NCBI GenBank assembly: GCA_964602665.1
Contig: CAZRRH010000004.1
Span: forward strand, 16,169 to 80,168
Direction of reading: 5' to 3'
From: an uncultured Candidatus Saccharibacteria bacterium
GTDB lineage: Bacteria > Patescibacteriota > Dojkabacteria > SC72 > WJKH01
DNA: 64,000 bases
Of this stretch, positions 36,221 through 53,667 are shown piece by piece. Every line of letters starts with the position of its first letter. Position 1 is the first letter of the stretch. The notes under the pieces are model-generated. The model saw nothing but the letters and a program-made list of their open reading frames with translations. It ran no database searches and was not told the origin of the DNA. The position numbers and the translations under genes were made by a program.

Positions 36221-37213
36221 CTAATTTATTATTATAACGATATCTCCTGTATTCATGAAATCGGGTCTTTCTTCAACTATAACAACATCTATTATAAACA
36301 AACTGCGCACAATATTCAAGCTCTGCGCGAATTTCTCTTTGTCACTGACAAAAATAGTCGTCTTATCATATGAAACGGGACAATTGCCGTATCTTATAAC
36401 ATTAAACCCTAGATTTGTGAGAATACGACTATATAAACTTGCCATACCAGAAGATGAGCCTGCATTATACACTTCTACGCGCGCTTGTTCTTTTTTAACT
36501 TGCTTATCAAAAAATACCGCGCTATTGGAATTTATTGTTGAATCAATTTTACTTGTATTGAGCTTGTAAACAAACTCTCCCGTAGAAATAAGCTCCTCTA
36601 CAAGATAATCGTTTTCTATTTTTATTATCTGAGTTTTTTTCGCAATTTGCTTAAGCTCGAACCATTTCTGCAACAGCTCTTTATAATTTAAATTGCTTAC
36701 CATGTCAGCATAATATAGTCCTAATTTATCATTCAAAAACAAATCAGTAATCTGAGTGTTTTTTCTAAACAATTTATTAATGTCCACATCTTCATCAGAG
36801 TATTCAATAGCTATTAAAGAGTTAATTTTCAGAGCAAATTGATTACCAAGTTTCTGGGTCAATAAAGAATATCCTCCACCAAAAGAGTCATTTAGTCCAA
36901 AGTGATTTATTGTAGAAAACCTCTCTTCGCCAATATATACCCATGAGGGTATATAGAATATTAATGCAGTAGCGTTTTCAGCGTTCTGCACAAAAAGAAA
37001 TCCGTGCATAATTTCGTTTGTCCCTTTTTCATAATCTCGCTTTTCAAGAACAAGAAGCGTCGTTTCAACACTTCTTTCTTGATTGTTAATAAAAACCTGA
37101 TCATTAATCAAAGGCTCTTTATTAAGATAATTAGATATATGTAATACTCGATATCCTATCAAGAGGAATCCAATAATAATTAAAAGCGCAAGTATTATTC
37201 TTAACTTCTTCAT
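36221..37213 (-). CDS. LytR-CpsA-Psr (LCP) family cell-envelope protein with a LytR_C-like C-terminal domain.
   Basis: An N-terminal transmembrane anchor. The C-terminal VEVYNAGSSSGMASLYSRILTNLGFNVIRYGNCPVSYDKTTIFV matches the LytR_C pattern. Confidence 0.55.
   Translation of the reverse strand: MKKLRIILALLIIIGFLLIGYRVLHISNYLNKEPLINDQVFINNQERSVETTLLVLEKRDYEKGTNEIMHGFLFVQNAENATALIFYIPSWVYIGEERFSTINHFGLNDSFGGGYSLLTQKLGNQFALKINSLIAIEYSDEDVDINKLFRKNTQITDLFLNDKLGLYYADMVSNLNYKELLQKWFELKQIAKKTQIIKIENDYLVEELISTGEFVYKLNTSKIDSTINSNSAVFFDKQVKKEQARVEVYNAGSSSGMASLYSRILTNLGFNVIRYGNCPVSYDKTTIFVSDKEKFAQSLNIVRSLFIIDVVIVEERPDFMNTGDIVIIIN
36934..36955. repeat. Copy of the palindromic element TATATACCC-ATGA-GGGTATATA, in frame inside the LCP gene (encodes YIPSWVY).
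   Basis: Perfect 9-bp inverted arms with a 4-nt centre. The same arms recur at 38330, 43044 and 52566. Confidence 0.5.
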
Positions 37214-37511
37214 ATGTTAATTTTGTGTTATTTTTACTTATAAGGCAATGTCTTATAAGTTTACTATCCTTACTGTTGTTTTAAATGCATAACATGTCCC
37301 GTTTTTGTCTGTGTTACGTAAATGTTATTTAATTTATCCTTTATCTAAGTCACTTTTTAAGGTTGATCTTTTTGGCTCTCAATTAAGATTATCAGCATAG
37401 CGTTTTTCATGAATACAGCATTTAAGCAAATTCTTTTTATTGTTCACATGATTTAAACATCAAGAGATTGTTCCGTCTTGATAACACTATCCATGAAAAA
37501 TACCCGATAAC

Positions 37512-38465
37512 TTACCACTTTGAAGACTCAAACTCCTCAAACCCTATAGTATCGTAAAACCCCTCTGAAAACACTTTGTTATCATATTCAAATCCAATAT
37601 GTATAGACCAAAGATCTATAGCTTTTGGCACAAGATACTCTTTGCCATAAAGTGTATCCCCAACAATAATCATCCCTAGCGCTTTTAAAGTAGCCCTAAT
37701 CTGATGATTTCTCCCAGTAAGAAGCTTTATAAGCAACCTGTTCTTACCGATAATTCTAAGTTCCAAAATAGCTTTCCTATACCCCCTAGGAGTATAAAAG
37801 TCATCTTTATACTTAAAGATTTTACCCGTCTCCATTTTATCAATTCCTTCAAGCTTAAAAGACCTACGGATTCTTTTTTTTCTATCTCTTATAATTCCCC
37901 CATAAACCCTGTAAACATAACCTTTTTCAAATTTACCTGCTAGCTCTTTGACATTGGCAATATAATATTTCTGAATTCCTCTTTCTAAAAACAAGCGTGA
38001 GAGCTCATTTTGCCCTTTAGTATTCTTCGCAAAAACCATAATACCTCCAACAGGTTTGTCTAATCTGTGCACGATACCATTTCTAGGCATTTCTTTATCT
38101 ATAAGACCTGTTTTTGCAAGGATTGCAGCCGTTTTAAGTACATCATCTCCTCGGTTTTTTATAGCAAATAAGAAGTCTTCATATTGTGCAGTGATTTGAG
38201 CATCCTGACCCTCTATATCAATTTCAGAAAAAGAACGCTTTGATGCATCCTCTAAAAGTGTCTCATCAAATAAATACTCCTCGCCTGCCTGCACAATGCA
38301 CGATGGCTTTACATTACTACCATCGACTTTATATACCCCACTGGGTATATACTTCTTGATAAAACTACGGGTACGATTTATGCCAACCCCCTTATTTAAT
38401 AAATCAGTAAGAGCGACATCCAATCTTTGTCCCCCGTAGTTATTTGGGATTAAGATTTTTTTCAT
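37512..38465 (-). CDS. rluD: RluA-family 23S rRNA pseudouridine synthase (RluD-like) with an N-terminal S4-like domain.
   Basis: The catalytic motif HRLDKPVGGIMVFAKN (HRLD) and NHQIRATL are present. 317 aa. Confidence 0.85.
   Translation of the reverse strand: MKKILIPNNYGGQRLDVALTDLLNKGVGINRTRSFIKKYIPSGVYKVDGSNVKPSCIVQAGEEYLFDETLLEDASKRSFSEIDIEGQDAQITAQYEDFLFAIKNRGDDVLKTAAILAKTGLIDKEMPRNGIVHRLDKPVGGIMVFAKNTKGQNELSRLFLERGIQKYYIANVKELAGKFEKGYVYRVYGGIIRDRKKRIRRSFKLEGIDKMETGKIFKYKDDFYTPRGYRKAILELRIIGKNRLLIKLLTGRNHQIRATLKALGMIIVGDTLYGKEYLVPKAIDLWSIHIGFEYDNKVFSEGFYDTIGFEEFESSKW
38330..38351. repeat. Copy of the palindromic element TATATACCC-CACT-GGGTATATA, in frame inside the rluD-like gene (encodes YIPSGVY).
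   Basis: Perfect 9-bp arms. The encoded IPSGVYKVD is identical to the peptide encoded at the 52566 copy. Confidence 0.5.
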
Positions 38466-39175
38466 ATTTTAATAGATACAGAAGGTTTGCGCACATCTTT
38501 ATAATATCTATACAAAGTCAACAAGTGTATCGCAAGTACAATTACAAGGTTTACCTTATCTGTGATTGTCATATACCCTTGCAAGAATATCACTGCAAGA
38601 TTTGCAAATATTACCAGTGACAAAATGAGCTCGTAGACAAACACTTTACCAGCCACAAATACTGCGAGTTTTTTATTTATCCTATCTGCAGTAAGGAATA
38701 TAATGTCAAGAACCCCAGCAGCGATGATAAAAGGCAATGCAGTACCATCCCTTGCCAAGACAGAGTAAATCGAGATCATAGCTACAATAGCTAAATATGC
38801 TGTTCCAAAAACAACCCTATACATCTCTTGCCAGCTCCACTTTTTCATATATGAGATGTAAAAATAAGCAAAAATTAATAAGCCAGCAAATATCCCAGTA
38901 AAAAGGAAGAAACCATCCCAAACAGCGATCATTTTCCAAGGAAGTTGTCTAAACCAATAAATTTTATCTCCGTAAAGCTCATATGGCGAGTAAAACCATC
39001 CCACAGACATAAATTCATCCCATCTTGATGTGATGTAAGATAATCTTCCCCACAAAAGCATAAATATACTGCCTAAAATCCACACATCAAATATTGAGTT
39101 GTTATCCTTCTGTATTCTTTTGCACTCATGCCAAAAAACATAAAATGCCACCAAGAAAAGAATAATAAAATACAT
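38462..39175 (-). CDS. Polytopic membrane protein, hypothetical.
   Basis: 237 aa with at least 6 hydrophobic helices. Its stop overlaps the rluD start (ATGA-type). No motif. Confidence 0.5.
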   Translation of the reverse strand: MYFIILFLVAFYVFWHECKRIQKDNNSIFDVWILGSIFMLLWGRLSYITSRWDEFMSVGWFYSPYELYGDKIYWFRQLPWKMIAVWDGFFLFTGIFAGLLIFAYFYISYMKKWSWQEMYRVVFGTAYLAIVAMISIYSVLARDGTALPFIIAAGVLDIIFLTADRINKKLAVFVAGKVFVYELILSLVIFANLAVIFLQGYMTITDKVNLVIVLAIHLLTLYRYYKDVRKPSVSIKI

Positions 39176-39177
39176 AA

Positions 39178-39870
39178 TTATTTTCTCTTTTTTGATTTAT
39201 TCTTGCTTTTTTTTGCCTTTTTAGTCGGAGCTGTAGCAAAAACTTCCGCTTCTTTCTCCTGTTTTTTGGGCTTCTTAGGAAATATCTTGTCGAATATATT
39301 GTCAACTTTCTCAAAAAGCTTCTCTAATCTTACTTTATTAGCATATTTAGGCCTTTGAGGCATATTCTCGATATTGTCAAAATCAGGCTTATTTTCGACC
39401 ACATTTTCTTTAGCTATTGTCGCAGTTGCTCCACAATATGGGCAAAATTTCCAATTCTTATCAATCATCGCGCCACAGCTACACTTAACTTTGATTATAT
39501 TATTACAATTAGGACAATTAACAAAACCTGGGCGTAACTGGAATCCACATTTCTCGCACTCTCCTAAATCAGCAGTTTCAAATAACAAATATCTTCTCTC
39601 AAGATCAGCCCAGTAAGCCTCCTCCAAAGTATCTTTTGGCCTTATTATGAAGTAAATCAAAAGGCCTGGGAGATTAAGCACCAAAACTAAGATCACTGAA
39701 AATATCTGTATGTACTTATTTTTTGTTCTTGAAATTATATCGTTATATATCCACCAAGCTACAAATAGCCAAAACACAAAAAAAAGAATCAGAACAACGG
39801 TTTTTATCTGACCATAATCAGCTCTTAGCGTGTTCTCGATAAACTGCTCTAGCCCTTCCTCAAATGTCAT
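39178..39870 (-). CDS. Membrane-anchored double zinc-ribbon protein with a Lys-rich C-terminal tail.
   Basis: The transmembrane helices are followed by CEKCGFQLRPGFVNCPNCNN...CSCGAMIDKNWKFCPYCGAT (two C4 ribbons). The C-terminus is KKPKKQEKEAEVFATAPTKKAKKSKNKSKKRK. Confidence 0.6.
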   Translation of the reverse strand: MTFEEGLEQFIENTLRADYGQIKTVVLILFFVFWLFVAWWIYNDIISRTKNKYIQIFSVILVLVLNLPGLLIYFIIRPKDTLEEAYWADLERRYLLFETADLGECEKCGFQLRPGFVNCPNCNNIIKVKCSCGAMIDKNWKFCPYCGATATIAKENVVENKPDFDNIENMPQRPKYANKVRLEKLFEKVDNIFDKIFPKKPKKQEKEAEVFATAPTKKAKKSKNKSKKRK

Positions 39871-39904
39871 ACAGATTTTAATTAAAATTTAATAAATATA
39901 AAAT

Positions 39905-40022
39905 TGGTGGTCGAGGAGGGAATTGAACCCTCACCCCAGCCAATAAGTAACAATAAATTTATTTCCTATTAGCTGGGACGGGATTTTGAGTCCCGCGTGT
40001 CTGCCAGTTCCACCACTCGACC
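39905..40022 (-). tRNA. tRNA-Leu (anticodon CAA), 118 nt, with genomically encoded CCA and an unusually long variable arm of about 44 nt.
   Basis: The minus-strand read is GGTCGAG-TG-GTG-GAACTGGCAGA-CAC-G-CGGGA-CTCAAAA-TCCCG-[TCCCAGC...30 nt A/T loop...GCTGGGG]-TGAGGG-TTCAATT-CCCTC-CTCGACC-A-CCA. The D-loop is Leu-type, the discriminator is A73, and the T-loop is TTCAATT. Confidence 0.8.
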
Positions 40023-40073
40023 ATGTCCCCTATTTTATCATTTTACCACCGCTTTTTCAACCTCCAACACAGT

Positions 40074-40115
40074 ATTAGTAATTAGTAATTAGCAATTAGT
40101 AATTCGTAATTAATA
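40074..40115. repeat. Tandem heptamer repeat, about 6 copies of ATTAGTA or near variants, between the dnaB stop and the tRNA-Leu gene.
   Basis: TATTAGTA ATTAGTA ATTAGCA ATTAGTA ATTCGTA ATTAATA. It is rich in stop codons in all frames. Confidence 0.4.
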
Positions 40116-40121
40116 ATTGTC

Positions 40122-41438
40122 TCAACTTCCTTTATATAAATTTCTAAAGCTGGCGATTTCTTTAACAAATGCAACCTCAATTTTACCTGTTGGACCATTT
40201 CTGTGTTTGGAAACAATAATATCTGCGATTCCTTTTCTCTCTGTATCCATATCGTAAGTCTCCTCTCTATCAATAAACATCACAATATCAGCATCTTGCT
40301 CAATAGACCCTGATTCTCGCAAGTCAGAAAGTTGAGGAGTTCTTGTCGTCCTACTCTCAATGGCGCGAGATAACTGTGAAAGTGCGATCACAGGTACATT
40401 AAGCTCTCTTGCAAGATTTTTAAGACCTTGAGATATCTCAGAGACCTCCAGCACTCTGTTTTCTGTATGGGTACCATGAAGTAGCTGTAAATAATCAACA
40501 AATATTATATCAACACCCTGCTCGAGCGCTAATCTCCTTGCTTTTGTACGAATCTCGTTAATGCTTTGACCTGGTTTATCATCGATAAAAATATTTGCCT
40601 CAGATAAAATCCCCATTGCATCATTAAACTTAACAAAATCATCATCTTTTAACTTGCCCGTATGAATATTCCAAAAAGGTATTCCCGACTGCATGCCAAT
40701 AAGACGGTTGATAACTTGCTCATTGGACATCTCAAGTGAGAAGAAAAGCGCTTTTTTTTTCTGCGCCACACCGGCAAATCGCAAAAAATCAAAAGCCAAA
40801 GAAGATTTACCAACAGATGGCCTTGCTGCAACAATAATGAGATCAGATTTCTGGAAGCCTCCCAGAAGATTATCAAGCTCCTTAAACCCTGATAAGACCC
40901 CAGTTAATCCAATATTCTTATCAGCTGATAAAGCTCGTTCATAAGCATCCTTTAATAATGTTTTAATGTGTACAACTTTCTGCCTTATCCCCTGCTGTGC
41001 AACAGAGAAAAGATTTTGCTCTGCATTATCAATAAGCTCTTTTATATTTAAGTTCTCATCAAAGCTCCAGTTTGTTATTTTTCCAGCTATCGAGATAAGG
41101 TTTCGTCTCAAAGCGTTTTCTCTAACGATAACAGCATATTCTTCTGCATGAGCAGATGTTGGGACAGATTCGACTAATTCGGTTAAATATGCTCTACCAC
41201 CTATCTTTCGTAGATTTTTCTCTTTTTTAAGCTTATCACTGAGAGTAACAATGTCAATCGGTAATCCTTCCTCAAATAAGCTCATAATTGCAGAATAAAT
41301 TAAAGCGTGCCTCTGATCGTAAAAATGTTCTGAAGATAATTGCTCTGCAACAGTGATTACAGCGTCTTTATCTAAAAGCATGGCTCCAAGTACACTAACC
41401 TCAGCCTCTATATTTTGTGGTGGTACTCTATCAGCCAT
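40122..41438 (-). CDS. dnaB: Replicative DNA helicase DnaB.
   Basis: NIEAEVSVLGAMLLDKDAV is the DnaB N-terminus. The Walker A is AARPSVGKSSLA, and RecA-like C-terminal motifs are present. 438 aa, no intein. Confidence 0.95.
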   Translation of the reverse strand: MADRVPPQNIEAEVSVLGAMLLDKDAVITVAEQLSSEHFYDQRHALIYSAIMSLFEEGLPIDIVTLSDKLKKEKNLRKIGGRAYLTELVESVPTSAHAEEYAVIVRENALRRNLISIAGKITNWSFDENLNIKELIDNAEQNLFSVAQQGIRQKVVHIKTLLKDAYERALSADKNIGLTGVLSGFKELDNLLGGFQKSDLIIVAARPSVGKSSLAFDFLRFAGVAQKKKALFFSLEMSNEQVINRLIGMQSGIPFWNIHTGKLKDDDFVKFNDAMGILSEANIFIDDKPGQSINEIRTKARRLALEQGVDIIFVDYLQLLHGTHTENRVLEVSEISQGLKNLARELNVPVIALSQLSRAIESRTTRTPQLSDLRESGSIEQDADIVMFIDREETYDMDTERKGIADIIVSKHRNGPTGKIEVAFVKEIASFRNLYKGS

Positions 41439-41463
41439 AAAAGCTCTTTAATAAGTAATCATC

Positions 41464-42081
41464 TTAATCTAAAATTGCAATCATCATTCTTTTGTCTTCC
41501 TCATTCGCTCTTACACCAAGTTTTAGCTCATCCATCTTCTCTGCTCCAGAAAATCCGCACTGTTTTAAGAAATCATCAACAGAAAGTAGCTCTTTATCGC
41601 CATCATACTGATAACCTGCAGGGATAAAGACTGACGGATCAATAGCAGATATTATCCTCTCTACTTTTGATATATTGGGGAATCCGTATTTATTTCCTGC
41701 TCCATCTCCAACAGCGATTATAAGAGCATCAACATCACCCATACCCTTAAGACTTGCTAGATCAAGCTCTGCACTATCATATCCTACAATTACAATTCTT
41801 TGCGTACCGCTATCTAACAATAAAACGCCATTATCATGCTTTCTAACAAGCACACCCGAGATTTCATACTCACCGTTATTTACAATTTCAAAAACAGTTT
41901 CTCTTTTATTTGGAACGATCTTACTCCCTTCTAGAACATTCTCTGTACCAGCATATTTTGCATGAGAAAAAAGCACTACATCTGCACTCTGCTTATTGCC
42001 CGATAAATTTGGATCAGTCAAAAAGACTGTATCGTCCTCTTTAATCGTAAATGATAGAAAACCCGCTGATTTAATTTTCAT
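41464..42081 (-). CDS. Hypothetical protein, possibly a degenerate metallo-beta-lactamase-fold protein.
   Basis: 205 aa. ADVVLFSHAKYAG sits where MBL-fold proteins carry HxHxDH, but the ligands are replaced. Low confidence. Confidence 0.4.
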   Translation of the reverse strand: MKIKSAGFLSFTIKEDDTVFLTDPNLSGNKQSADVVLFSHAKYAGTENVLEGSKIVPNKRETVFEIVNNGEYEISGVLVRKHDNGVLLLDSGTQRIVIVGYDSAELDLASLKGMGDVDALIIAVGDGAGNKYGFPNISKVERIISAIDPSVFIPAGYQYDGDKELLSVDDFLKQCGFSGAEKMDELKLGVRANEEDKRMMIAILD

Positions 42082-42197
42082 AAGTAAAGTTTCTAATATT
42101 AATTTCAGAAGAACTGTTTTAATATCAACAATTCAATTATGTGTTTCTGATTATAGCACAAAAGAGTTACATATTAAATAGTACCAAGCCTAAACTC

Positions 42198-42779: not shown

Positions 42780-42781
42780 AT

Positions 42782-43006
42782 CTATAATTGCTCAATCATC
42801 CCTTCGACTTCCCTTATTATACTATCTTTTATTTTCTTTTTTAATAAAACTGCTTTTATCGCCTCTAAACTCGAGACAGAGGCCTTGATTTGCATAACTA
42901 TTCTATCTGTAGATTCTCCTCTGTCGATCATAGATGCCACCGCATTAACTTGTCCAACGGCTCTTTTAACTCTCTCTTTTATTGTTGAAGGTCCTTTCTT
43001 TGGCAT
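42782..43006 (-). CDS. CsoR/RcnR/FrmR-family (DUF156) small regulator lacking the canonical Cys/His metal ligands.
   Basis: VKRAVGQVNAVASMIDRGESTDRIVMQIKASVSSLEAIKAVLL matches the RIEGQVRGI..MIE....C.D.L.QI.AV..AL pattern. The Cys position is Ser/Thr. It is 3 nt upstream of the sortase gene. Confidence 0.5.
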   Translation of the reverse strand: MPKKGPSTIKERVKRAVGQVNAVASMIDRGESTDRIVMQIKASVSSLEAIKAVLLKKKIKDSIIREVEGMIEQL

Positions 43007-43043
43007 AATAATTTTTATTTTAAAACTTATTGTTTAATTCTAT

Positions 43044-43066
43044 TATATACCCTCCCGGGGTATATA
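43044..43066. repeat. Intergenic copy of the palindromic element TATATACCC-TCCCG-GGGTATATA, in the divergent csoR-like/rpmE promoter region.
   Basis: The same 9-bp arms as the three coding copies, here with a 5-nt centre. Confidence 0.5.
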
Positions 43067-43151
43067 GCAAGCCTCTTGTTAAAAACGAATCTAACTAAAT
43101 CCTACAAGGCACTTGCAATTTCTAATAAAACATAATATAATAAGACTCGTT

Positions 43152-43490: not shown

Positions 43491-44556
43491 TAAACTAAAA
43501 CAGCTACAGACTACTCACGATACTCTTAGCCAAAAGCTCCTAGATCCAACAAAACTCACAGAAGTAGAACGCTCTACTCTATACTCAGATTTAGATTATC
43601 ACACAACAGCAATTGATCAAATAAGCAAAATTATTAAACTCCAAAAAGAGCTTGAAGACGCAAAAGAGCTGTTAAACGATAAAAGCATGCATGAAATGGC
43701 ACTAGTTGAGATTGATAAGATTAAGCAGGAATTATCAAAAACCGAATCTGAACATCGCGCCTTAGAAGTAGAACGCAAATTTAGTGATCCCGATGATACA
43801 AGATCTGCGATTATCGAAATAAGAGCCGGAGCCGGAGGTGACGAAGCAGGTTTATTTGCTTCTGACCTTCTCAAAATGTATCAATTCTATGCTACCTCCC
43901 AGGGATGGGTCTTTGAGATCATATCAACAAGTGTAAACGAATCAGGCGGATACAAAGAGATCATTGGCTCAATAAACGGCAAAAATGTTTTTAAAAAGCT
44001 CAAATATGAAAGCGGCGTCCACCGTGTGCAAAGAGTTCCTATAACAGAATCAAAAGGCCGAATTCATACATCAACAGTCTCCGTCGCAATTTTACCAGAG
44101 GCAAAAGAGATTGATGTACAGATCAAGCCGGAAGATATTAAAATAGATGTTATGCGCGCAACTGGCGCAGGCGGACAGTGTGTTAATACAACAGATAGCG
44201 CAGTAAGAATAACACATATACCAACAGGTATAGTTGTCAGCTGTCAGGAAACAAAACATCAGCTGCAAAATCGTCAAAAAGCTATGGCTATGCTTTTAGC
44301 AAGAATTTACGACAGAAAAAAGAAAGAGGAGCAAGACAAAATCGACTCTCTAAGAGCAGGACAAGTAGGCAAGATGATGCGAGCAGAAAAAATTCGCACA
44401 TATAACTACCCACAAAACCGAATAACAGACCATAGAGTTAAGCTCTCATGGCATAATCTAGATGGCATTCTAGGCGGTAATTTGGAGCAAATGCTTACAG
44501 ATACAAACGATGCTGTTATACAGGCATTAATTGAAGAAAATGACTCTGCCAAATAA
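43477..44556 (+). CDS. prfA: Peptide chain release factor 1.
   Basis: GGQ motif AGGQCVNTTDSAVRITHIPTGIVV, and the RF1-type tripeptide region RVQRVPITESKGRIHTS. 359 aa. Confidence 0.95.
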   Translation: MTLLDKLKQLQTTHDTLSQKLLDPTKLTEVERSTLYSDLDYHTTAIDQISKIIKLQKELEDAKELLNDKSMHEMALVEIDKIKQELSKTESEHRALEVERKFSDPDDTRSAIIEIRAGAGGDEAGLFASDLLKMYQFYATSQGWVFEIISTSVNESGGYKEIIGSINGKNVFKKLKYESGVHRVQRVPITESKGRIHTSTVSVAILPEAKEIDVQIKPEDIKIDVMRATGAGGQCVNTTDSAVRITHIPTGIVVSCQETKHQLQNRQKAMAMLLARIYDRKKKEEQDKIDSLRAGQVGKMMRAEKIRTYNYPQNRITDHRVKLSWHNLDGILGGNLEQMLTDTNDAVIQALIEENDSAK

Positions 44557-45412
44557 TACTACACAACTTATTCCCCTACTCTCCCAAAAAATCGATCATA
44601 TCTGTGCAGACACGGGATTAATAGCTAAAGAAATAGTCTCACATGTGATTGGCAATGACAAGAACATATACAACAAAATCTTATCAGATCAGCAAATAGC
44701 AGAAATTAACCAAATAATCGAAAAACTTAATACGAATATCCCATTGGCTTATATTCTAAAAAAAGCACAGTTCTTTTCCCTAGACCTTCACATTAACAAC
44801 TCTGTCCTAATCCCAAGGGTCGAGACAGAACAACTAGTGCAAATCGCAATTGATTATATTAAAAGATTTAAAAACAAGCCTGCTTACATAATAGACCTAG
44901 GAACAGGATCAGGAAATATAATAATTTCACTTGCAAAATTTTTACCATTTGATAATTATAAATTTATCGCTACAGATATATCAAACAAGGCTCTAAAATT
45001 GGCATCAGAAAACGCAAAGAGAAATGATGTTGATATTACATTTATTAAGTCAAATTTCCTGCAAGATATTGATCCAGAGCTAATAAGTAAGATTAAAAAA
45101 TCAGTTCATTTTATTATCAGTAATCCGCCTTATATACCCCCTAAAGTATATAATTCCCTGTCTAAAAGCGTAAAAGCACACGAGCCAAGGAAAGCTCTCC
45201 ACGGAGGCAAAAGAGGAGTCAAATATTATAATCGCATAAAAAAGCAAATCAGCAACCTTCAACTTTCTCCACAAGGCATTTTTTTAGAAATAGACCCGCT
45301 AATAAGGCGCAAAGTAGTCAAGATTTTTAAAACAGGTACAGTTGTATCTGATTCGTTTAGTAGGAAGAGATTTTTTATCAAACTAAAGAAATTGCCGGCT
45401 CATTCTCTCTAA
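44531..45412 (+). CDS. prmC: Release-factor glutamine N5-methyltransferase PrmC (HemK).
   Basis: The SAM-binding motif is IIDLGTGSGNI and the NPPY motif is IISNPPYIP. It follows prfA, a conserved gene pair. Confidence 0.85.
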   Translation: MKKMTLPNNTTQLIPLLSQKIDHICADTGLIAKEIVSHVIGNDKNIYNKILSDQQIAEINQIIEKLNTNIPLAYILKKAQFFSLDLHINNSVLIPRVETEQLVQIAIDYIKRFKNKPAYIIDLGTGSGNIIISLAKFLPFDNYKFIATDISNKALKLASENAKRNDVDITFIKSNFLQDIDPELISKIKKSVHFIISNPPYIPPKVYNSLSKSVKAHEPRKALHGGKRGVKYYNRIKKQISNLQLSPQGIFLEIDPLIRRKVVKIFKTGTVVSDSFSRKRFFIKLKKLPAHSL

Positions 45413-46781: not shown

Positions 46782-46806
46782 ACTTTTTATCTAAAAATTT
46801 ATATAT

Positions 46807-47892
46807 CTAATCTATTATTTTGACCTCACTTTCTAGCTCTACCCCATACTTTTCCATTACTTCCTCTTTCATTTTCTTTGTGACAGCCAAAATTTCCTCT
46901 CCCGTTGCTTTCTTGTTTGAGACGACACATAAAGCATGAGCTTCATGTACACCTGCATTGCCCATCCATCGCCCTTTCCAGCCTAACTCGTCAAGCAGAC
47001 GACCCGCAGGTATTTTTACATATTCCAAATCATCAACTTTTTGCCAATCTTTCAAGTCGTAGCTTAATTTATCAACAGGATAAGACTGCAAATCCTCAAG
47101 CACCGTCGCCAATTCTTTAAATTTTGCCACTGAAACAACAGGGTTTCTAAAAAAACTCCCACAGCTTCCGACTTTGTTTAAATCCGGCAATTTTCTCTCT
47201 CTTATATTTATCACAGCTTGTGCAACATCTTTTATTGTATAAGGCTCTTTTGCAAATTTAACAAGCTCTTCCTCCAAAGATACATAACGCCCTTTTCTTT
47301 CATGATAACTTGTCTCCAACTTATCTGGATCTTTTTCCAATCTAACATCGACATAAGTAATTATATATCTATCTTCACCACCTTTTAACCTAAAAATTGG
47401 TATTCGATATGTTAAATCAAACTCACTTGCAGCAAAATGAACAAATTTGCCTGTTTGAATATCAAAGGCCTCAAGCCCCACAAAGACATCACAGAAATTT
47501 TGTCCATAAGCAGCTATATTTCCCGCACAGGCACCTCCTACAGTACCAGGTATTAATGCCATGTTTTCTACGCCACCTAGGTTGTTTTCTACTGCGTGCA
47601 TTACAAAATCATGCCAATTCTCCCCTGCTCCAAGACGCATAATTACATGATCCTTTTTGTCCTCTATTATTTCTCGTCCCTTAATATCGATTTTTATAAC
47701 AACACCTTCGTAATCTTTTGTAAAAAGAATATTTGTCGCATCACCTATTATGATTCTTGGAAGATTTTTTATCTCTTCTGATTTTAATAACTGCTCTAAT
47801 TCATCACGATTTTTTATTATTGCAAAGTATTTTGCTTTTATATCAACAGCAAATGAGTTGTATTTTTTTAATGAGAAATCTTTGTGTATCAT
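46807..47892 (-). CDS. murB: UDP-N-acetylenolpyruvoylglucosamine reductase MurB.
   Basis: The FAD-binding domain motifs GGVENMALIPGTVGGACAGNIAAYG are present. 361 aa. Confidence 0.85.
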   Translation of the reverse strand: MIHKDFSLKKYNSFAVDIKAKYFAIIKNRDELEQLLKSEEIKNLPRIIIGDATNILFTKDYEGVVIKIDIKGREIIEDKKDHVIMRLGAGENWHDFVMHAVENNLGGVENMALIPGTVGGACAGNIAAYGQNFCDVFVGLEAFDIQTGKFVHFAASEFDLTYRIPIFRLKGGEDRYIITYVDVRLEKDPDKLETSYHERKGRYVSLEEELVKFAKEPYTIKDVAQAVINIRERKLPDLNKVGSCGSFFRNPVVSVAKFKELATVLEDLQSYPVDKLSYDLKDWQKVDDLEYVKIPAGRLLDELGWKGRWMGNAGVHEAHALCVVSNKKATGEEILAVTKKMKEEVMEKYGVELESEVKIID

Positions 47893-47925
47893 TGTTTTTT
47901 TATTAAAAATTATTCTTTAAATAAC

Positions 47926-49437
47926 TTATCCAATCTGCCTTACATCGCCTCCAAGTTTATTAATCCTATTTGCAATATCCTCATATCCTCTTGAAATAGA
48001 GTAAACATTTCTTAAGATAGAGACACCTTCAGCTCCCAACATTGACAACATTATTATCGCTGCAGGCCTTAGCGCCGGCGGAGCAACAATTTGTGTATTT
48101 TTCATTACCGTTGGACCCTTGATATAAACCCTATGAGGATCAGCTAGAATCATATCGGCTCCAAGTTTCGTTAATTCCATGTAGTAAATTGCCCTGTTCT
48201 CATAAACCCAATCATGGACCAGTGTTTGACCTTCTGCTTTTGTCGCTATTGGAACAAAGAACGGAAGATTATCAATATTAATTCCTGGAAATGGTCTTGC
48301 ATATATTTTCTCATCAAGAGCTTTAAGCGTAGAAGGATATACAGTCAAATCAACAAGATCTGTAAAACCGTTATAAGATTTGTAACTCTTCCCTATTTTA
48401 AACCTAAGCCCCATCGCTCTTAACTTGAGAAGCTCTAATTCAAGAAAATCAATAGGAACACGCTTTATTGTAAGCTCTGAATTTGTCATAATAGCTGCTG
48501 TTATCCAAAACATTGCCTCAATTGGATCTTCACTATTATAATGCTCTACTGTGCGATTGATTTTATCTACCCCGTGTATAGTAAGCGTGGTTGTACCTAT
48601 GCCATCAACTTTAACACCACAATTAAGTAAGAAATTTGCTACATCACAAACCATATAATTTGCGCTCGCCATTTTTATTACTGTGTCACCTACGATTTTA
48701 GATGCAAGCATAAGGATATTCTCCGTACCAGTATCAGATGACTCGTACATAATAATTTTATTTGGTTTCAGATTTTTTGCTTTCACAATATAGTCGTTAG
48801 CTGTTACCTTAATCTTCACACCAAGATCGCTCATGGCATAAAGGTTTGACGCAATAGTTCTTGTGCCAAGAGTACAACCTTGGGCGTGAGGAAGTGTAAA
48901 CTCTGGCAACAAATGAATCAATGGCCCAAGGAACATAAGAATAGTCCTAGTCCTTTTGGCCGATTGCTCGTCGATTGTTTTAAGATTGACTTTTCCAACC
49001 TTTATCTCAAGTGTATCATGGTCAAGCCACTTTGTATTAATACCAATGCTTTGCATAACTTCCAAAATTCTATTTACTTCTTCAATTCTTGGGATTTTAT
49101 GTAAAATTGTCTTACCTTCATTAAGCAAAGCAGCACACAAAAGTCCCATTGCTCCATTTTTTGAGGCATTTACGGTAACTTCACCTGACAACTTTTTACC
49201 ACCATTTATTAAAAAATCCGTACTTGATGGAGCATTTATTATTAATTTGCGATTTAAGACGTTGCTTATTTTCGCTAAAGTATCCGTTGTAAAATTCTGT
49301 TCTCCTTTTTCCATCCTTGCAACAGCACTTTGCGTAGTTTTTAATTTCTGTGCAAGCTGTTCTTGCGTTATGTTTTTGCTTGAGCGAAGCGATTTTATCA
49401 TTCGACCGATTTGCTTATTTATTGTTGGATTTTTCAT
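47926..49437 (-). CDS. murA: UDP-N-acetylglucosamine 1-carboxyvinyltransferase MurA with an N-terminal XRE-type helix-turn-helix domain (fusion).
   Basis: Residues about 10-65, ITQEQLAQKLKTTQSAVARMEKGEQNFTTDTLAKISNVL, are HTH_XRE. Then FLINGGKKLSGEVTVNASKNGA is the MurA N-terminus. The catalytic Cys loop is QGCTLGTRTIA. It is one continuous 503-aa ORF. Confidence 0.85.
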   Translation of the reverse strand: MKNPTINKQIGRMIKSLRSSKNITQEQLAQKLKTTQSAVARMEKGEQNFTTDTLAKISNVLNRKLIINAPSSTDFLINGGKKLSGEVTVNASKNGAMGLLCAALLNEGKTILHKIPRIEEVNRILEVMQSIGINTKWLDHDTLEIKVGKVNLKTIDEQSAKRTRTILMFLGPLIHLLPEFTLPHAQGCTLGTRTIASNLYAMSDLGVKIKVTANDYIVKAKNLKPNKIIMYESSDTGTENILMLASKIVGDTVIKMASANYMVCDVANFLLNCGVKVDGIGTTTLTIHGVDKINRTVEHYNSEDPIEAMFWITAAIMTNSELTIKRVPIDFLELELLKLRAMGLRFKIGKSYKSYNGFTDLVDLTVYPSTLKALDEKIYARPFPGINIDNLPFFVPIATKAEGQTLVHDWVYENRAIYYMELTKLGADMILADPHRVYIKGPTVMKNTQIVAPPALRPAAIIMLSMLGAEGVSILRNVYSISRGYEDIANRINKLGGDVRQIG

Positions 49438-49534
49438 ATGATTTTAAATAAATTTAATCATACAATACCAAGATAGCATATGTGTTATATTCTGTCAAGC
49501 TTGCGTAGATCCTCTAATTATGGTATAATATGAT

Positions 49535-50473
49535 ATGACACACGAAGTAGCAACAGAACAAGCACAGATAAGTATAGAAACAGGTTTCCCGACTAATTTT
49601 GCCTATGGACCAATAGCTCCTCTTAACAGCGAATGTCAACCTGTTTTCCCATATTTAAGAGCAGATCAACAAAAGAGCCCTGGTCCGGAATATGAGTTAT
49701 TAACCATCGCTGACCTATTTAGGCTGCCAGATTACTTACCAATTACAGCAGAGGAAGTGGCAGATATTCTTAACAGAACAGCCGCAAGACTAGGAGGCTT
49801 TTTATTATCTTGGAAACCGGATGTAATTCTACGCTTTTTTGATGAAGGGAACTTAACACTACATATCCCCTTTCTAGAAAAGTCTCTTTCATCAGTAACA
49901 GAAGTAGGAGAAAAACAAGGTCCAGATTTTAATAATGCCAGAAATACAAAATGGGCCTCGCTCGCCAATGCAACAACCAGAATATTAACCAGAACTGCTC
50001 AAAGATGGAGCCCAAACCTCCAGACTTTTAACAACTCAATAACAGATGAAATCTTAAGAACAATAGCTCCGGTAACAACAAATCAAGTAGCAAAGACTTT
50101 TGAACTAAGTTTAAGTTTACTTTCTCCTCTAAAACAAAGAAAACCTCTGTTTAAACCGAGAGTTCAGAAACACAGAAAAATAGCGCTAACAGGCGTTGTC
50201 TCACCAATAAAAGAAGAGAGGAAATCTGTAGTTGAAAATTGCTTTGAAGTTGCCACCATTGAATTAAGATCTCCATTAATAAGAGATGATGAAGGTGAAC
50301 TAACTTTATTATATTATCCAACAAGAGATGTTCTATTCAAGCAGAATCCAGCCCGCCCCACAATGCCAAGCCAATATTTCATTGTAATCTTCGATAATGG
50401 AAATGGAAGATACCTTTTGCAAAGAATTAATCCTGTAGATGATATTTATTCAGCACCGCCATTAGTTACCTAA
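49535..50473 (+). CDS. Hypothetical protein, an orphan plus-strand gene inside the minus-strand cell-wall cluster.
   Basis: 312 aa with no recognisable motif. The region appears locally higher in GC by eye. Confidence 0.45.
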   Translation: MTHEVATEQAQISIETGFPTNFAYGPIAPLNSECQPVFPYLRADQQKSPGPEYELLTIADLFRLPDYLPITAEEVADILNRTAARLGGFLLSWKPDVILRFFDEGNLTLHIPFLEKSLSSVTEVGEKQGPDFNNARNTKWASLANATTRILTRTAQRWSPNLQTFNNSITDEILRTIAPVTTNQVAKTFELSLSLLSPLKQRKPLFKPRVQKHRKIALTGVVSPIKEERKSVVENCFEVATIELRSPLIRDDEGELTLLYYPTRDVLFKQNPARPTMPSQYFIVIFDNGNGRYLLQRINPVDDIYSAPPLVT

Positions 50474-50478
50474 AATCA

Positions 50479-51585
50479 CTACAAGAAAGCAACAAGAAGC
50501 CCAATAAGAGCAAAAAACACCGAGAGAAGCCAAAATCTCATGACAATCTTCTCCTCCTTCCAACCGATAGCTTCAAAATGATAATGCAAAGGAGCCATTT
50601 TAAAAAGTCTTCTGCCTGCAACTCTTCTGTAGAATCCTTGCAAAACAGACGAAAAAATTTCTGCAACAACAACTCCAAGCATAATGATAACAGCAAAAAC
50701 GCTATCCAAAAGAACAAAAGCTAAAAATACATATACTCCCAAAGCCAAAGAACCAACATCACCCATTTGTACCCTTGCAGGCTTAATATTAAAGTATAAA
50801 TAAGTTAACAAGCCACCTATTAAAACGCTACTCATAACAGCAACCTCGCTATTACCTTTTGCAATTGCCAATATAACAGACGCAAAAAGTGATGGCAAAA
50901 TAATTCCTGTAGATAATCCATCCATGCCATCAGTTATATTTACTCCGTTTGAAAATAAACCGAGTCCAAAAACGAACAAAGGAATTATAAACCAGCCAAG
51001 ATTTAGACTCCCAATAAATGGTATATTAACGCTATTAATTCCATAAACCGCGGACAGCCAATAAGAAACCACTCCAAACAGTCCCACTTGTAAAAAAATC
51101 TTCTCACCTGCATGTAAACCATTGCCCGGATACGAACCAAGTGCATACCAAAAGTTCTTATACAATCCTATAGGTAAAGTGATCCAATAATATACTCTTT
51201 TTAGAGCCGATTTGTGAATCTGAGCAAGCTTTACATGCTTTTGCAGTGGCAATATTTTACGTGGATGACCAAAAATTACAAGTATGTCATCAATTCCTCC
51301 CATAAGCGCCATAGCAACAAATGCTCCGCTAACAACAGATATCACTCTCCAATCAAGCTCTTTTTTAAAGAAATATAAGGCAAAGATAATTACAATATAT
51401 GATAAAATAAATATCAAACCACCCATTATTGGTGTACCAAGTTTTTTCTTAACCTCAGGAAGTATTGAAGCAAAATCATTTTTTATCTGCCTAACGACAT
51501 TTTTTTTATAAAGCAGTTTTATAATAAACGGCGCCAATAAAAAAGATACCAGACAAGATAATATAATTAATTTTAAGTATTCCAT
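50479..51585 (-). CDS. mraY: Phospho-N-acetylmuramoyl-pentapeptide transferase MraY (polyprenyl-phosphate sugar-phosphate transferase family).
   Basis: KKLGTPIMGG, NGVNITDGMDGLSTG and MGDVGSLALG are the MraY/WecA signature loops. 368 aa, polytopic. Confidence 0.8.
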   Translation of the reverse strand: MEYLKLIILSCLVSFLLAPFIIKLLYKKNVVRQIKNDFASILPEVKKKLGTPIMGGLIFILSYIVIIFALYFFKKELDWRVISVVSGAFVAMALMGGIDDILVIFGHPRKILPLQKHVKLAQIHKSALKRVYYWITLPIGLYKNFWYALGSYPGNGLHAGEKIFLQVGLFGVVSYWLSAVYGINSVNIPFIGSLNLGWFIIPLFVFGLGLFSNGVNITDGMDGLSTGIILPSLFASVILAIAKGNSEVAVMSSVLIGGLLTYLYFNIKPARVQMGDVGSLALGVYVFLAFVLLDSVFAVIIMLGVVVAEIFSSVLQGFYRRVAGRRLFKMAPLHYHFEAIGWKEEKIVMRFWLLSVFFALIGLLVAFL

Positions 51586-51596
51586 ATATTTATAAT

Positions 51597-52355
51597 TTAT
51601 TTTAATCGTCTAAGTCCACCATCATCACCTGCCACCTCGAGTTGTTTCTTAGTCCAGCAGACGCCATCTTTATCTTTCTCCAACCAATCTTGATCTAATA
51701 ACGATCCTCTTGAGTCTACAACAATTATCTCGCCAATTCTTACACCATCTTCAATTCCATAATGTTGTGTACTGTGAGCATATTTAATGCTGATCAAATT
51801 GTCGTCATCATCTTTTGTAACTGTAGTAATAATCGCAATATGATCCCCTCTTCTGACACCCTTAAGGCGCAATAAATCACCAGGCCTAACATCATTTAAC
51901 AAAACTTCAGTTGTATTTTGACCATTTGTCATAAGATCAGCTCCAATATGCTCAATAGGCCTAAGCCAATTAACAATTCTTTTATACAAAGACCTGTTCG
52001 CAGGGAATTTAATATTCGAATATAAATTTCCTTTACCGATCTCCTTTAAATAAGTATCAAGGACATGCGCCACAAAACCTGAGCAATCAACTCCTAGCCC
52101 AACCGAGCGCATAAACTCTCTAATCTCCACAACAGACTTCCCAGAAAGCTCAAAGCCTCTTAATTTAGCAAATATCATTACTTCTTGTGCAATTTCATCA
52201 GGCAACCCCTTCCCTACTTTTGATCTAAGTTCTGCACGAACCCTTTTGACATTGCGATAATATGGTGTTGGAACAATTTGTCCACCCAAATCCAGCTTGA
52301 AATAGTCTTTAATAAGCTGCTTTGTTTTTTCTGGTAAACTGCTAATCTGTGACAT
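51597..52355 (-). CDS. NlpC/P60-like papain-fold peptidase domain protein.
   Basis: The Cys motif is GVDCSGFVAHVL (DCSG). The downstream His is in RPGDLLRLKGVRRGDHIAIIT. 252 aa. Confidence 0.5.
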   Translation of the reverse strand: MSQISSLPEKTKQLIKDYFKLDLGGQIVPTPYYRNVKRVRAELRSKVGKGLPDEIAQEVMIFAKLRGFELSGKSVVEIREFMRSVGLGVDCSGFVAHVLDTYLKEIGKGNLYSNIKFPANRSLYKRIVNWLRPIEHIGADLMTNGQNTTEVLLNDVRPGDLLRLKGVRRGDHIAIITTVTKDDDDNLISIKYAHSTQHYGIEDGVRIGEIIVVDSRGSLLDQDWLEKDKDGVCWTKKQLEVAGDDGGLRRLK

Positions 52356-53667
52356 ATATTTTTTGATAAATTTTATCTACAAGTTTTCTGTATCTATCGG
52401 ATTCTACCATATTTGATAATGTTTGTATTCTAACAAGCTCGCCACCCGGCGAAACTATATGCCCATCATCAACAACGAGCATAAAGATCTCGTCATCAGG
52501 ATCCTTAATATCATCAATACTCCAGCCATCTCGAGCATACTCAAAAGAGCCATTCTGGTCGACCTTATATACCCCCGAGGGTATATGGGTATTTATCTCA
52601 ATAGCAATTTCTTTAATATTGCGCATAATTAACTGAGAAGCATTTAAGACAGAAAAATCTTGAATTAAAACTTCTTCTTTCTCAATCTGTTCTTCAAACT
52701 GCTCAAGGTGTATTCTTTTTAATGGCATAAGACCTTGCATTTGCATAAGTTTGGTATGCATAGATGTACTTGCAGGCTGTCTTGCATTAACCTCAATTAA
52801 AAAAACCTCACCTTGCTTATCTATAACAAAATCAAGACCAAAAAGACCTTTAAAACCATGCTCAGACATTTTATTGCCAACATTAATGATTATTTGTCTC
52901 ATAGAATCAAGTGATTTATCGGTAAGCCGGCTTCTCATACTCCAATCATTGCCAACTGTCCCACCTGCCATGGCAGTACATTTCTCCCATCCTGTTATCT
53001 GATATGATAATCCGCCAAAAGAGACCCCTTCTCTACCTATACATGCATTTATTGTCCAGCTATCCCCTTCTATATATTTGGCTATCCTTGCAATCCTTTT
53101 AGGAAATTTGGATTGCTCGTTTAAGAAATCGTGCTCATTCTTAATAAAAACAGTGCTACTTCCTGTATGCCCTCTGTCGTACTGTATAACAAACTTGTCA
53201 TATTTAAAATCTGAGTATCTTATATCGCCAAGTTTTGCAATTTTTGTCTCAGGGAAGTTCACATTAGAATCATTCAGAAGATCGTACTGTGATAATTTTA
53301 GCTCAAATTTGCGATTAAGCGCAGTCGTTGTATTGATAATTTTGTATCCGAGCTTTTTTGCTGTAACTTCTATATTGTTCGCTATTTTAAATACCCATAT
53401 GTGAGGTGGATTTGGGTTGTTAAGATTCGTCTTTTTTATATACTCTTGTACTAGTTTATTCTGCAAGAGTCTATTTGAGTTTCGAAATAGCTGATTATAC
53501 TTTCCTGTCTCTTGCTCAAGACAAAACACATTAACGCCTTCTTTTTGCATGTAATCAACTATCTTGTTGTAATCAATGCAAATTATGTGATAATTAGGAA
53601 TCTCCTTCTCAAGCCCAAGCGCCCGTTCTACATCATTGCATATGTAATATATATTGGGTTTTTGCAT
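52342..53667 (-). CDS. ATP-grasp superfamily enzyme, specificity unknown.
   Basis: The C-terminal motif GLFGLDFVIDKQGEVFLIEVNARQ (E-x-N Mg ligands) is present. 441 aa. It contains the in-frame palindrome-encoded peptide HIPSGVYKVD. Confidence 0.6.
   Translation of the reverse strand: MQKPNIYYICNDVERALGLEKEIPNYHIICIDYNKIVDYMQKEGVNVFCLEQETGKYNQLFRNSNRLLQNKLVQEYIKKTNLNNPNPPHIWVFKIANNIEVTAKKLGYKIINTTTALNRKFELKLSQYDLLNDSNVNFPETKIAKLGDIRYSDFKYDKFVIQYDRGHTGSSTVFIKNEHDFLNEQSKFPKRIARIAKYIEGDSWTINACIGREGVSFGGLSYQITGWEKCTAMAGGTVGNDWSMRSRLTDKSLDSMRQIIINVGNKMSEHGFKGLFGLDFVIDKQGEVFLIEVNARQPASTSMHTKLMQMQGLMPLKRIHLEQFEEQIEKEEVLIQDFSVLNASQLIMRNIKEIAIEINTHIPSGVYKVDQNGSFEYARDGWSIDDIKDPDDEIFMLVVDDGHIVSPGGELVRIQTLSNMVESDRYRKLVDKIYQKIYVTD
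52566..52587. repeat. Copy of the palindromic element TATATACCC-CCGA-GGGTATATg, in frame inside the ATP-grasp gene (encodes HIPSGVYKVD).
   Basis: 9-bp left arm, 8 of 9 right arm. The Ser codon in the centre differs from the rluD copy (TCG vs AGT) while the arms are conserved. Confidence 0.5.

Follow-up and report, generated by a model that had tools for sequence, protein, structure and literature searches.

The window, a 64-kb stretch of contig CAZRRH010000004.1 from an uncultured bacterium of the Dojkabacteria lineage, carries five copies of a short palindrome, TATATACCC-N4/5-GGGTATATA (arms of 9 nt, spacer of 4 or 5 nt), in the neighbourhood of a gene for a CsoR-like protein of 74 amino acids (aa). 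Copies were sought by exact search and mismatch scan, and chance was gauged with 100 dinucleotide-preserving shuffles. One copy is intergenic and overlies the predicted promoter of the CsoR-like gene; four are located in frame within coding sequences. The features are as follows (a strand is given where the feature has one).

43044..43066: predicted promoter operator with a 5-nt spacer (N5), TATATACCC-TCCCG-GGGTATATA, equal to ATACCC-N5-GGGTAT and TAC-X9-GTA; exact match
43042..43070, minus strand: sigma-70-like promoter, TTGCTA-17 bp-TATAAT, with the operator as its spacer; promoter scan, 10/12 match
42782..43006, minus strand: CsoR/RcnR-family gene, 74 aa; PF02583, 42 bits
42198..42779, minus strand: sortase gene; PF04203, E 2e-29
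38330..38351: intragenic site with a 4-nt spacer (N4; CACT), RluA/RluD-family pseudouridine synthase gene, codons 39-45; perfect 18/18
36934..36955: intragenic site, N4 (ATGA), LytR_C-domain membrane protein gene; perfect 18/18
52566..52587: intragenic site, N4, ATP-grasp gene; 17/18
45131..45152: decayed intragenic site, N4, prmC; 16/18
37776..37798: weak and doubtful relic in the pseudouridine synthase gene, ccTATACCCcctaGGAGTATAaa; 14/18, not convincing in the window

Three copies are perfect in the exact search (36934-36955, 38330-38351 and 43044-43066). The copy at 52566-52587 has the right arm GGGTATATG and is perfect only over the 7-nt core TATACCC-N4-GGGTATA. The mismatch scan yielded the additional fifth copy, TATATACCCcctaAAGTATATA, on the plus strand within prmC. 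The exact pattern is found in 0 of 100 shuffled windows; base composition predicts 4.7e-6 copies per 64 kb at 18/18, 2.6e-4 at 17/18 or better and 6.6e-3 at 16/18 or better. An earlier note on this DNA had described four copies sharing perfect 9-bp arms, which is correct for three, holds only for the core at 52566-52587, and overlooks the copy in prmC. Its statement that the recurrence is far beyond chance agrees with these expectations.

Host genes of the intragenic copies are a pseudouridine synthase of the RluA/RluD family (317 aa, 37512-38465, minus strand, PF00849), a membrane protein of 330 aa (36221-37213, minus strand), an ATP-grasp enzyme of 441 aa (52342-53667, minus strand) and PrmC (44531-45412, plus strand; TIGR03534, 203 bits against a cutoff of 199.1 bits). 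The 330-aa protein has LytR_C (PF13399) as its sole domain match and no match to the LCP catalytic domain; the label 'LCP protein' used before has only partial support. All four coding copies are read in one frame, TAT ATA CCC nnn nGG GTA TAT, and encode YIPSGVY (RluD-like), YIPSWVY (LytR_C), HIPSGVY (ATP-grasp) and YIPPKVY (PrmC). The earlier note had correctly read the common frame, YIPSWVY in the 330-aa protein, the peptide IPSGVYKVD shared by the RluA/RluD-family and ATP-grasp proteins, the differing Ser codons (AGT and TCG) and the position of the intergenic copy between the CsoR-like gene and rpmE.

Four lineages were compared: A, the window; B, NCBI GCA_015657875.1 (contigs L123 and L183) with contig L130 of a sister assembly; C, Logan SRR8925812 (L126, L129); and D, JGI contigs (L127, L128). 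RluD is covered in lineages A-D, the LytR_C gene and PrmC in A-C, and the ATP-grasp gene in A and B. Lineages B and C keep the order PrmC, RF1, ribosomal protein L31, CsoR-like protein, sortase, MBL-fold protein and DnaB, and further on RluD, the LytR_C gene, YebC and RuvCAB. With the RluD protein alone as the query, no related loci were obtained from the metagenome collection. Codons at the sites are listed below.

RluD site, lineage A: TAT ATA CCC AGT GGG GTA TAT
RluD site, lineage A, 98% strain variant: TAT ATA CCC AAT GGG GTA TAT (spacer alone changed)
RluD site, lineage B: TTT ATA CCC AGG GGG GTA TTT
RluD site, lineage C: TTT ATA CCC GTG GGG GTA TAT
RluD site, lineage D: CTT ATA CCC CAG GGG GTA TAT
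LytR_C gene site, lineage A: TAT ATA CCC TCA TGG GTA TAT
LytR_C gene site, lineage B: TAT ATA CCC CCA TGG GTA TAT
LytR_C gene site, lineage C: TAT ATA CCC CCT TGG GTA TAT
ATP-grasp site, lineage A: CAT ATA CCC TCG GGG GTA TAT
ATP-grasp site, lineage B: CAC ATA CCC TCG GGG GTA TAT
PrmC site, lineage A: TAT ATA CCC CCT AAA GTA TAT (decayed)
PrmC site, lineage B: TAT ATA ACT CCA CGA CTT TAT (lost; L183)
PrmC site, lineage C: TAT ATA CCC AAC CGG GTA TAT (perfect 18/18; L129)

The RluD site scores 13/14 over the core in L123, 17/18 in L126 and 14/14 over the core in L127 and L128; the LytR_C gene site scores 17/18 in L123 and 18/18 in L126; the orthologous ATP-grasp site in L183 is CACATACCCtcggGGGTATATA. 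In lineage D the LytR_C gene is truncated or cut off by a contig end; in one contig the part that would hold the palindrome (L128 1456-1992) is apparently deleted or rearranged, with an N-terminal frame that stops early and a called gene that begins later, and the site is not scorable.

Host proteins are about 32-62% identical between lineages (RluD 34-45%). The core ATA-CCC-nnn-GGG-GTA of RluD is kept in four lineages, with variation in the spacer residue and flanks; ATA-CCC-nnn-TGG-GTA is kept in the LytR_C gene of three, and ATA-CCC-TCG-GGG-GTA in the ATP-grasp gene of two. Gene-wide, identical codons at conserved degenerate residues amount to ~0.4, the level expected from codon bias alone, i.e. 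saturated. Both arm codons are rare in these lineages: CCC accounts for 8-15% among Pro codons, GGG for 10-22% among Gly codons. Given the residues I, P, G and V, the probability of ATA, CCC, GGG and GTA is 0.6-4e-3 per lineage; for the RluD codons of all four lineages together, each taken at its own codon usage, it comes to ~4e-12. Five other IP.G peptides of the window use CCA or CCT with GGT or GGA and never CCC; GGG is used in only 2 of 11 other G[IV]Y peptides. Since the rare codons are kept despite saturated synonymous sites, the selected object is the nucleotide sequence: the intragenic copies are under purifying selection at the nucleotide level and are not a matter of protein homology. 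A constraint of this kind had been proposed in the earlier note, which named as the contrary case orthologs with the peptide and without the palindromic DNA. The opposite was found, the DNA core being kept in RluD relatives only 34-45% identical.

The protein context is ordinary at each site. In RluD the palindrome falls on the normal S4 motif I..G.V.VNG, and relatives align without gaps as FIPRGVF, FIPVGVY and LIPQGVY. In PrmC it starts at the catalytic NPPY-I. The LytR_C protein has IFYIP[SP]WVY in three lineages, gapless. More than 100 ATP-grasp orthologs have x-x-x-G-[IV]-Y at the site and none has 'IPS'; HIPSGVY is restricted in this family to the window clade and a 59%-identical ortholog. 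The right half of the ATP-grasp site is therefore ancestral, and the left half (I-P) acquired. The comparison further shows sites being gained and lost between lineages in the manner of transcription-factor sites. The relic at 37776-37798 encodes FYTPRGY; at this position lineage B (L123 10751-10767) has a perfect core with a 3-nt spacer (N3), TATACCCagaGGGTATA, encoding FIPRGY, which would be an example of such turnover.

The Streptomyces CsoR consensus, ATATACCCCTNAGGGGTATAT, has ATACCC and GGGTAT blocks 5 nt apart; the 5'-TAC-X9-GTA-3' dyad is essential, and two tetramers of S. lividans CsoR occupy each operator (PMC3902906). The S. mitis cst (CstR) operator is ATATACCCTTATGGGGTATAT (PMC8643695). 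Judged by its letters, the window motif is the canonical operator of the CsoR/CstR family, ATACCC-N5-GGGTAT, and the intergenic copy fits the consensus. X9 is not common to all window copies, every intragenic copy being N4 (TAC-X8-GTA). A location in a promoter is seen for the intergenic copy and not for the four intragenic ones.

The 18-nt pattern was also scanned in one genome per species (185,579 species), with at least 117 matching loci, of which 117 are listed. The listed matches are from Bacillota, Actinomycetota, Alphaproteobacteria, Spirochaetes, the candidate phyla radiation (CPR) and others, with one locus per genome almost throughout, nearly all intergenic. An open reading frame (ORF) of the CsoR family, detected with a hidden Markov model seeded with the window protein, is found within 1.5 kb at 43 of the 117, mostly 2-70 bp from the palindrome. 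Among these listed matches, 47 of 85 N5 sites adjoin CsoR-family genes or ORFs with Cu-ATPase/HMA sequence motifs, and 34 of 36 CsoR-family proteins beside N5 sites have the C-H-C fingerprint (L116 has C-N-C, L024 is truncated). N4 sites adjoin CsoR-family genes at 7 of 32 loci, directly upstream, and all seven proteins are x-C-x-C, CstR-like. Spacing thus correlates with the CsoR subfamily in other bacteria.

The promoter copy precedes the ATG of the CsoR-like gene by 37 bp. In the promoter scan it fills the 17-bp spacer and overlaps both hexamers, TTGCTA (-35) and TATAAT (-10), at 43070..43042 on the minus strand. A predicted operator over its own promoter has the classical geometry of steric autorepression. 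The sortase gene starts 2 bp downstream of the CsoR-like gene, an adjacency kept in L123 and L129, and the two genes probably form one transcription unit. A perfect N5 operator in the same promoter arrangement is present in L129 (58%-identical ortholog), the same promoter-operator arrangement is present at a Paceibacterota CsoR gene (L093), and the same promoter architecture in L123 and L130 (78%-identical ortholog). In L132, a Cys-less homolog with 41% identity has its N4 copy flanked by TTGACA and a -10-like box of its own promoter.

The 74-aa protein matches PF02583 with 42 bits (gathering cutoff 22.8 bits). A profile built from it and six homologs matches the solved CsoR 4M1P (E 1e-9), CstR 7MQ1 and InrS (5FMN), as well as S. 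lividans CsoR 4ADZ, FrmR 5LCY and M. tuberculosis CsoR 2HH7. The RLXR motif (R12, R15) and the helix 2 Gln, Q39, are kept without exception in 16 subfamily members; substitution of the equivalent residues of S. lividans CsoR (R57A, Q81A) abolishes DNA binding (PMC3902906). In the alignment to solved structures the Cys-His-Cys columns of the Cu(I) ligands are T33, K58 and S62. Neither Cys nor His is present in the protein or in its three closest homologs. W-X-Y-Z fingerprints of the family are x-C-H-C for Cu, H-C-H-H for Ni/Co, x-C-x-C for persulfide and P-C-H-x for formaldehyde, and the main text of the same source has no Cys-less group among CsoR-family clusters (PMC8643695). The 74-aa protein fits none of these fingerprints; by its residues, the Cys/His-free branch would be incapable of sensing metals or persulfides by known chemistry. 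Genes for copper, nickel, sulfide or formaldehyde metabolism are absent near the 74-aa gene, the neighbours being sortase, cell-wall and translation genes.

The N-terminus is invariant, MPKKGPST in the 74-aa protein and MP[KR]KGP[ST]T in the subfamily (P0122-P0134). Removal of Met would expose Pro2 in this Cys-less subfamily; FrmR pairs Pro2 with Cys for formaldehyde, and Thr is found here. The invariant Pro2 recalls the P-C-H-x fingerprint of FrmR, minus the Cys partner. An exhaustive HMMER search of 1.84 billion representatives gave only 27 relatives at E <= 1e-3, most of ~75 aa, Cys-less and of the pattern MP[KR]KGPST..R..R..GQ....M....Q.QA.ISSLE. Full-text searches of Creative Commons-licensed PubMed Central papers and of bioRxiv turned up nothing relevant on CsoR in Patescibacteria/CPR or on conserved intragenic CsoR sites.

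Two contigs of the same strain from another sample (L185, L186) add 8.2 kb and 6.6 kb to the window, for ~79 kb in total, and have no further sites in the added DNA. All five sites are within 15.7 kb of these ~79 kb and within 10 kb on either side of the regulator gene (clustering P ~0.007 for five sites, 0.027 for four). In lineage B, of which 40.6 kb is seen, sites are at orthologous positions only, apart from the additional N3 core in rluD. Among metagenomic loci, 53 encode relatives of the CsoR-like protein, 50 of them Cys-less. At some 50 loci with more distant Cys-less orthologs, the promoter motif and intragenic copies are both absent within +/-10 kb; the syntenic position of these orthologs (L31, CsoR-like protein, MBL-fold protein, DnaB) is kept. 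The promoter operator and the intragenic copies thus co-occur in one subclade, which fits a single putative binder and is effectively one evolutionary event.

Distant Dojkabacteria-like lineages, without the TATACCC motif, have a lineage-specific palindrome twice near the Cys-less CsoR-like gene: ACAGGGTnACCCTGT, CAGACCnGGTCTG or ATATACTnnnnAGTATAT, both copies in a genome being of the same variant. Such pairs are listed below.

L141: 9092 and 9957
L137: 4685 and 5550
L152: 4838 and 5105

In seven further contigs (L164, L167-L172) a CIRCE-like inverted repeat, TTAGCAaag-N9-GAGTGCTAA, precedes the CsoR-like gene by ~60-90 bp; on its other side is a divergent gene of 147 aa that resembles, by appearance, a small heat-shock protein. 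This suggests a putative HrcA-type heat-shock control next to the regulator in these contigs.

Among explanations of the palindromes, a binding site for an oligomeric protein (a dimeric one in the earlier note) appears the best. The note had also offered the adjacent CsoR-like protein as a candidate, and this neighbour is the obvious putative binder because the motif equals the published CsoR-family operator (PMC3902906). With a probability of roughly 0.6, the copies are best read as predicted CsoR-type binding sites of the adjacent sensor-less regulator, serving in autorepression and in an intragenic roadblock or auxiliary function. The 74-aa CsoR-like protein, as a tetramer, would bind copies of both spacings, N5 in the promoter and N4 within genes. 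Since it lacks Cys/His sensing residues, binding would be constitutive or would respond to something by another route. The promoter copy would repress the unit of CsoR-like gene and sortase gene. The intragenic sites would either be roadblocks or insulators of transcription or serve an auxiliary purpose, keeping the protein within its 16-kb neighbourhood and raising local occupancy; the roadblock or attenuation role is favoured only slightly over the auxiliary one. Two placements bear on a roadblock role. The ATP-grasp site precedes the start of the next gene of a cell-wall operon (NlpC/P60-like gene, mraY, murA, murB, phosphomutase gene) by ~210-230 bp, and read-through from the convergent phosphomutase gene toward rpmE and the regulator promoter would cross the prmC site in antisense. 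The shared frame, YIPx[G/W]VY, would reflect opportunism: sites would have arisen where an I/V-P-x-G-V-Y-like turn was already present or tolerated, because there the site is cheapest to encode, mostly synonymous changes sufficing. A fixed DNA loop between sites was rejected: inter-site distances differ between lineages (1.4-1.8 kb; 4.7 and 8.2 kb), and this lack of conservation argues against it.

Several observations weigh against assigning the sites to the adjacent regulator. Spacing is N5 in the promoter copies and N4 throughout the intragenic ones, and elsewhere the two go with different subfamilies (Cu-CsoR and CstR-like), so that the N4 sites could be bound by an unseen second paralog of the CsoR family. 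The lineage B promoter site has its left CCC changed to GGG (ATACggggggaGGGTAT; cATATACggggggaGGGTATATAat in L123/L130) while the intragenic sites persist; the altered site retains TAC-X9-GTA and has gained a G6 tract, in which it resembles the RcnR sites of PMC3902906. In lineage D (L127) the RluD core is retained, and no CsoR-like gene adjoins the sortase on the 6.9-kb contig. The same cluster encodes an alternative binder, a helix-turn-helix (HTH) domain of the XRE type fused to MurA. Site positions, at 12%, 26%, 68% and 83% of host gene length, fit no single roadblock design, and the promoter scan has a convincing -35 element at none of the intragenic sites. The clustering is seen in ~79 kb of genome only, and the sites may not be confined to one cluster. 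A perfect N4 copy is located inside a sufB-like gene of another genome (L004 6351-6372, metagenome-assembled genome contig JAFGCJ010000003.1, Candidatus Dojkabacteria). That copy encodes FIYIPPGVY, with TAT ATA CCC CCA GGG GTA TAT in the same frame and with the same rare codons, the gene being named by sequence motif; it hints at intragenic copies at other loci in related genomes.

Some of these points are shared with the strongest competing explanation, in which the copies are real DNA-binding sites and the intragenic N4 copies are bound by another protein, either a CsoR/CstR paralog or the HTH-MurA fusion. It is considered unlikely, though worth keeping in view. It would account for the segregation of N4 and N5 with different CsoR subfamilies in other bacteria, and for the RluD site of lineage D with no CsoR-like gene in view. 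The fusion (HTH_3 plus EPSP_synthase; window 47926-49437, minus strand; L129 2221-3759; L183 14934-16463) is present in three site-bearing lineages and is 76-78% identical in B and C, whereas the more distant L184, which has no ATP-grasp site, has a 427-aa MurA without HTH. However, the N4 copy of L132 sits precisely in the promoter of the Cys-less homolog itself, the N4 and N5 arms are identical over 9 nt, and these genomes are small, with one PF02583 gene in ~79 kb. We know of no XRE-type operator with this palindrome sequence, and this counts against the fusion as well.

An mRNA hairpin (9-bp stem, 4-nt loop) acting in processing, stability or ribosome pausing, with the likeness to an operator coincidental, is improbable to a much greater degree. 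Each copy can form a stable hairpin, and two are flagged as terminator-like stems on the antisense strand. Yet over 13 aligned N4 sites the arm pairs comprise 12 broken cells (10 in the outer arm, 2 in the decayed prmC core) and 1 compensated cell, and the covariation score is equalled by 154 of 500 shuffles. The inner ATACCC/GGGTAT, 6 nt on each side, is invariant at these sites except in the decayed prmC copy of the window. The arms thus vary by breaking pairs and not by compensating; therefore sequence is conserved and not pairing, which fits a protein reading duplex DNA. Rfam gave no family at any site, identical arms occur in the spacer of the promoter, which is not transcribed, and the sequence is that of a known protein-DNA operator. 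For lack of covariation and of an Rfam family the hairpin was rejected.

A short palindromic mobile or repeat element inserted in frame in several genes, such as a Rickettsia palindromic element (RPE, named for comparison in the earlier note) or a miniature inverted-repeat transposable element, has next to no probability and was rejected: one palindrome does recur in unrelated genes, always in frame, but the alignment of orthologs proposed in that note for the YIPSGVY segment shows no gap or insertion in RluD, LytR_C, ATP-grasp or PrmC, the sites occupy normal protein positions and recur at orthologous places in deep lineages (B, C and D), flanking codons differ between copies, and the element is only 22 bp long, with 5 copies in ~79 kb, all near the regulator. 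A chance meeting of codon bias with the common beta-turn peptide IPxGVY can be dismissed with similar assurance: the coding copies share a frame and the ancestral motifs of the hosts are related (S4 I..G.V.VNG, NPPYI, G[IV]Y), but the rare codons CCC and GGG are used where other IP.G and G[IV]Y peptides of the window use common ones, and the codon-usage tables (~4e-12 for RluD), the control peptides, the saturation baseline and the shuffles, with 0 matches, rule it out.

Two further candidates were set aside. At intragenic sites the right arms are often followed by TATAAA-, TATAAG- or TATAAT-like hexamers; internal sigma-70 promoters were rejected on the absence of -35 elements in the promoter scan, in which the sole match overlapping an intragenic site is that in prmC, TTTACG-18-TATACT, weak at 9/12. 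A tyrosine-recombinase or dif-like site was dropped by inference only: recombination between copies in essential genes would harm, and spacers of 4-5 nt are too short.

The promoter copy, read as the predicted operator of the adjacent regulator, resembles the operators of CsoR, CstR and RicR: ATACCC-N5-GGGTAT with TA-rich flanks and TAC-X9-GTA, the intergenic copy being located over the regulator's own promoter. The window protein shares with these systems the fold signature of the family and the DNA-contact residues RLXR and Q. Unlike them, its regulator has T/K/S at the ligand positions, metal, sulfide and formaldehyde genes are absent nearby, and most copies are intragenic, N4 and conserved.

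Intragenic auxiliary or roadblock operators include lac O2 in lacZ, the PurR site in purB and the CcpA and CodY roadblocks. As in these, a promoter-type repressor palindrome is located inside transcribed coding sequence near the regulated locus. Unlike lac O2-type sites, those of the window number four or five, are spread over different genes at distances of as much as 9.5 kb from the promoter copy, and are kept over very deep divergence, and the regulator is apparently without a ligand site. The parS, NBS and SBS palindromes of ParB, Noc and SlmA, respectively, are 16-18 bp long, often intragenic, regionally clustered and conserved across species. The window has a like layout of intragenic palindromes clustered in one region and conserved despite coding constraint, but the sequence is unrelated, no ParB-family gene is linked, the motif is a transcription-factor operator, and one copy is in a promoter. 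RPEs are insertions of ~100-150 bp that add a peptide segment. The window palindrome resembles them in being in frame in unrelated ORFs, and differs in its 22 bp, in that nothing is inserted and in copies that are orthologous, not mobile.

Two side observations concern neighbouring DNA. A symmetric variant, gATATACCTatgcAGGTATATa (CCT/AGG for CCC/GGG), is located at L129 5530-5551 in a phosphoglucosamine/phosphomannomutase gene of lineage C; it is absent from the window ortholog and may be due to chance. At 39908-40022 of the window (minus strand) Rfam matches tRNA over 115 nt (52.9 bits, full model 1-71), and ARAGORN reports no tRNA in the window; this tRNA may be intron-containing or otherwise atypical.

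The DNA motif is already known, and the promoter copy is, as a sequence, an ordinary CsoR-family operator. Intragenic transcription-factor sites are present in most bacterial maps from chromatin immunoprecipitation sequencing, and their importance is rarely clear. What appears new is a member of the family without sensory residues and without metal or sulfur genes nearby, together with operator copies in frame in four housekeeping genes, selectively kept across very deep divergence, and a local cluster of copies around the regulator gene. The association across phyla of N5 with Cu-type (C-H-C) and of N4 with CstR-type (C-x-C) proteins may aid annotation. The Cys/His-free branch of the CsoR/RcnR family is uncharacterised; in Dojkabacteria-like genomes, where regulator genes are very few, its position is conserved. 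Quite tentatively, and at less than even odds, a CsoR-family protein without ligand residues may have been repurposed in a reduced CPR genome as a constitutive architectural or roadblock factor, its operators in essential genes (rluD, prmC, the cell-wall ATP-grasp ligase and the LytR_C envelope protein gene) coding doubly and marking a bound domain of ~16 kb. Rare codons, and even amino-acid changes, are maintained for a known operator sequence in four genes, and this selection shows that the sites matter. They would make dual coding by a bacterial repressor site open to testing in a natural example.

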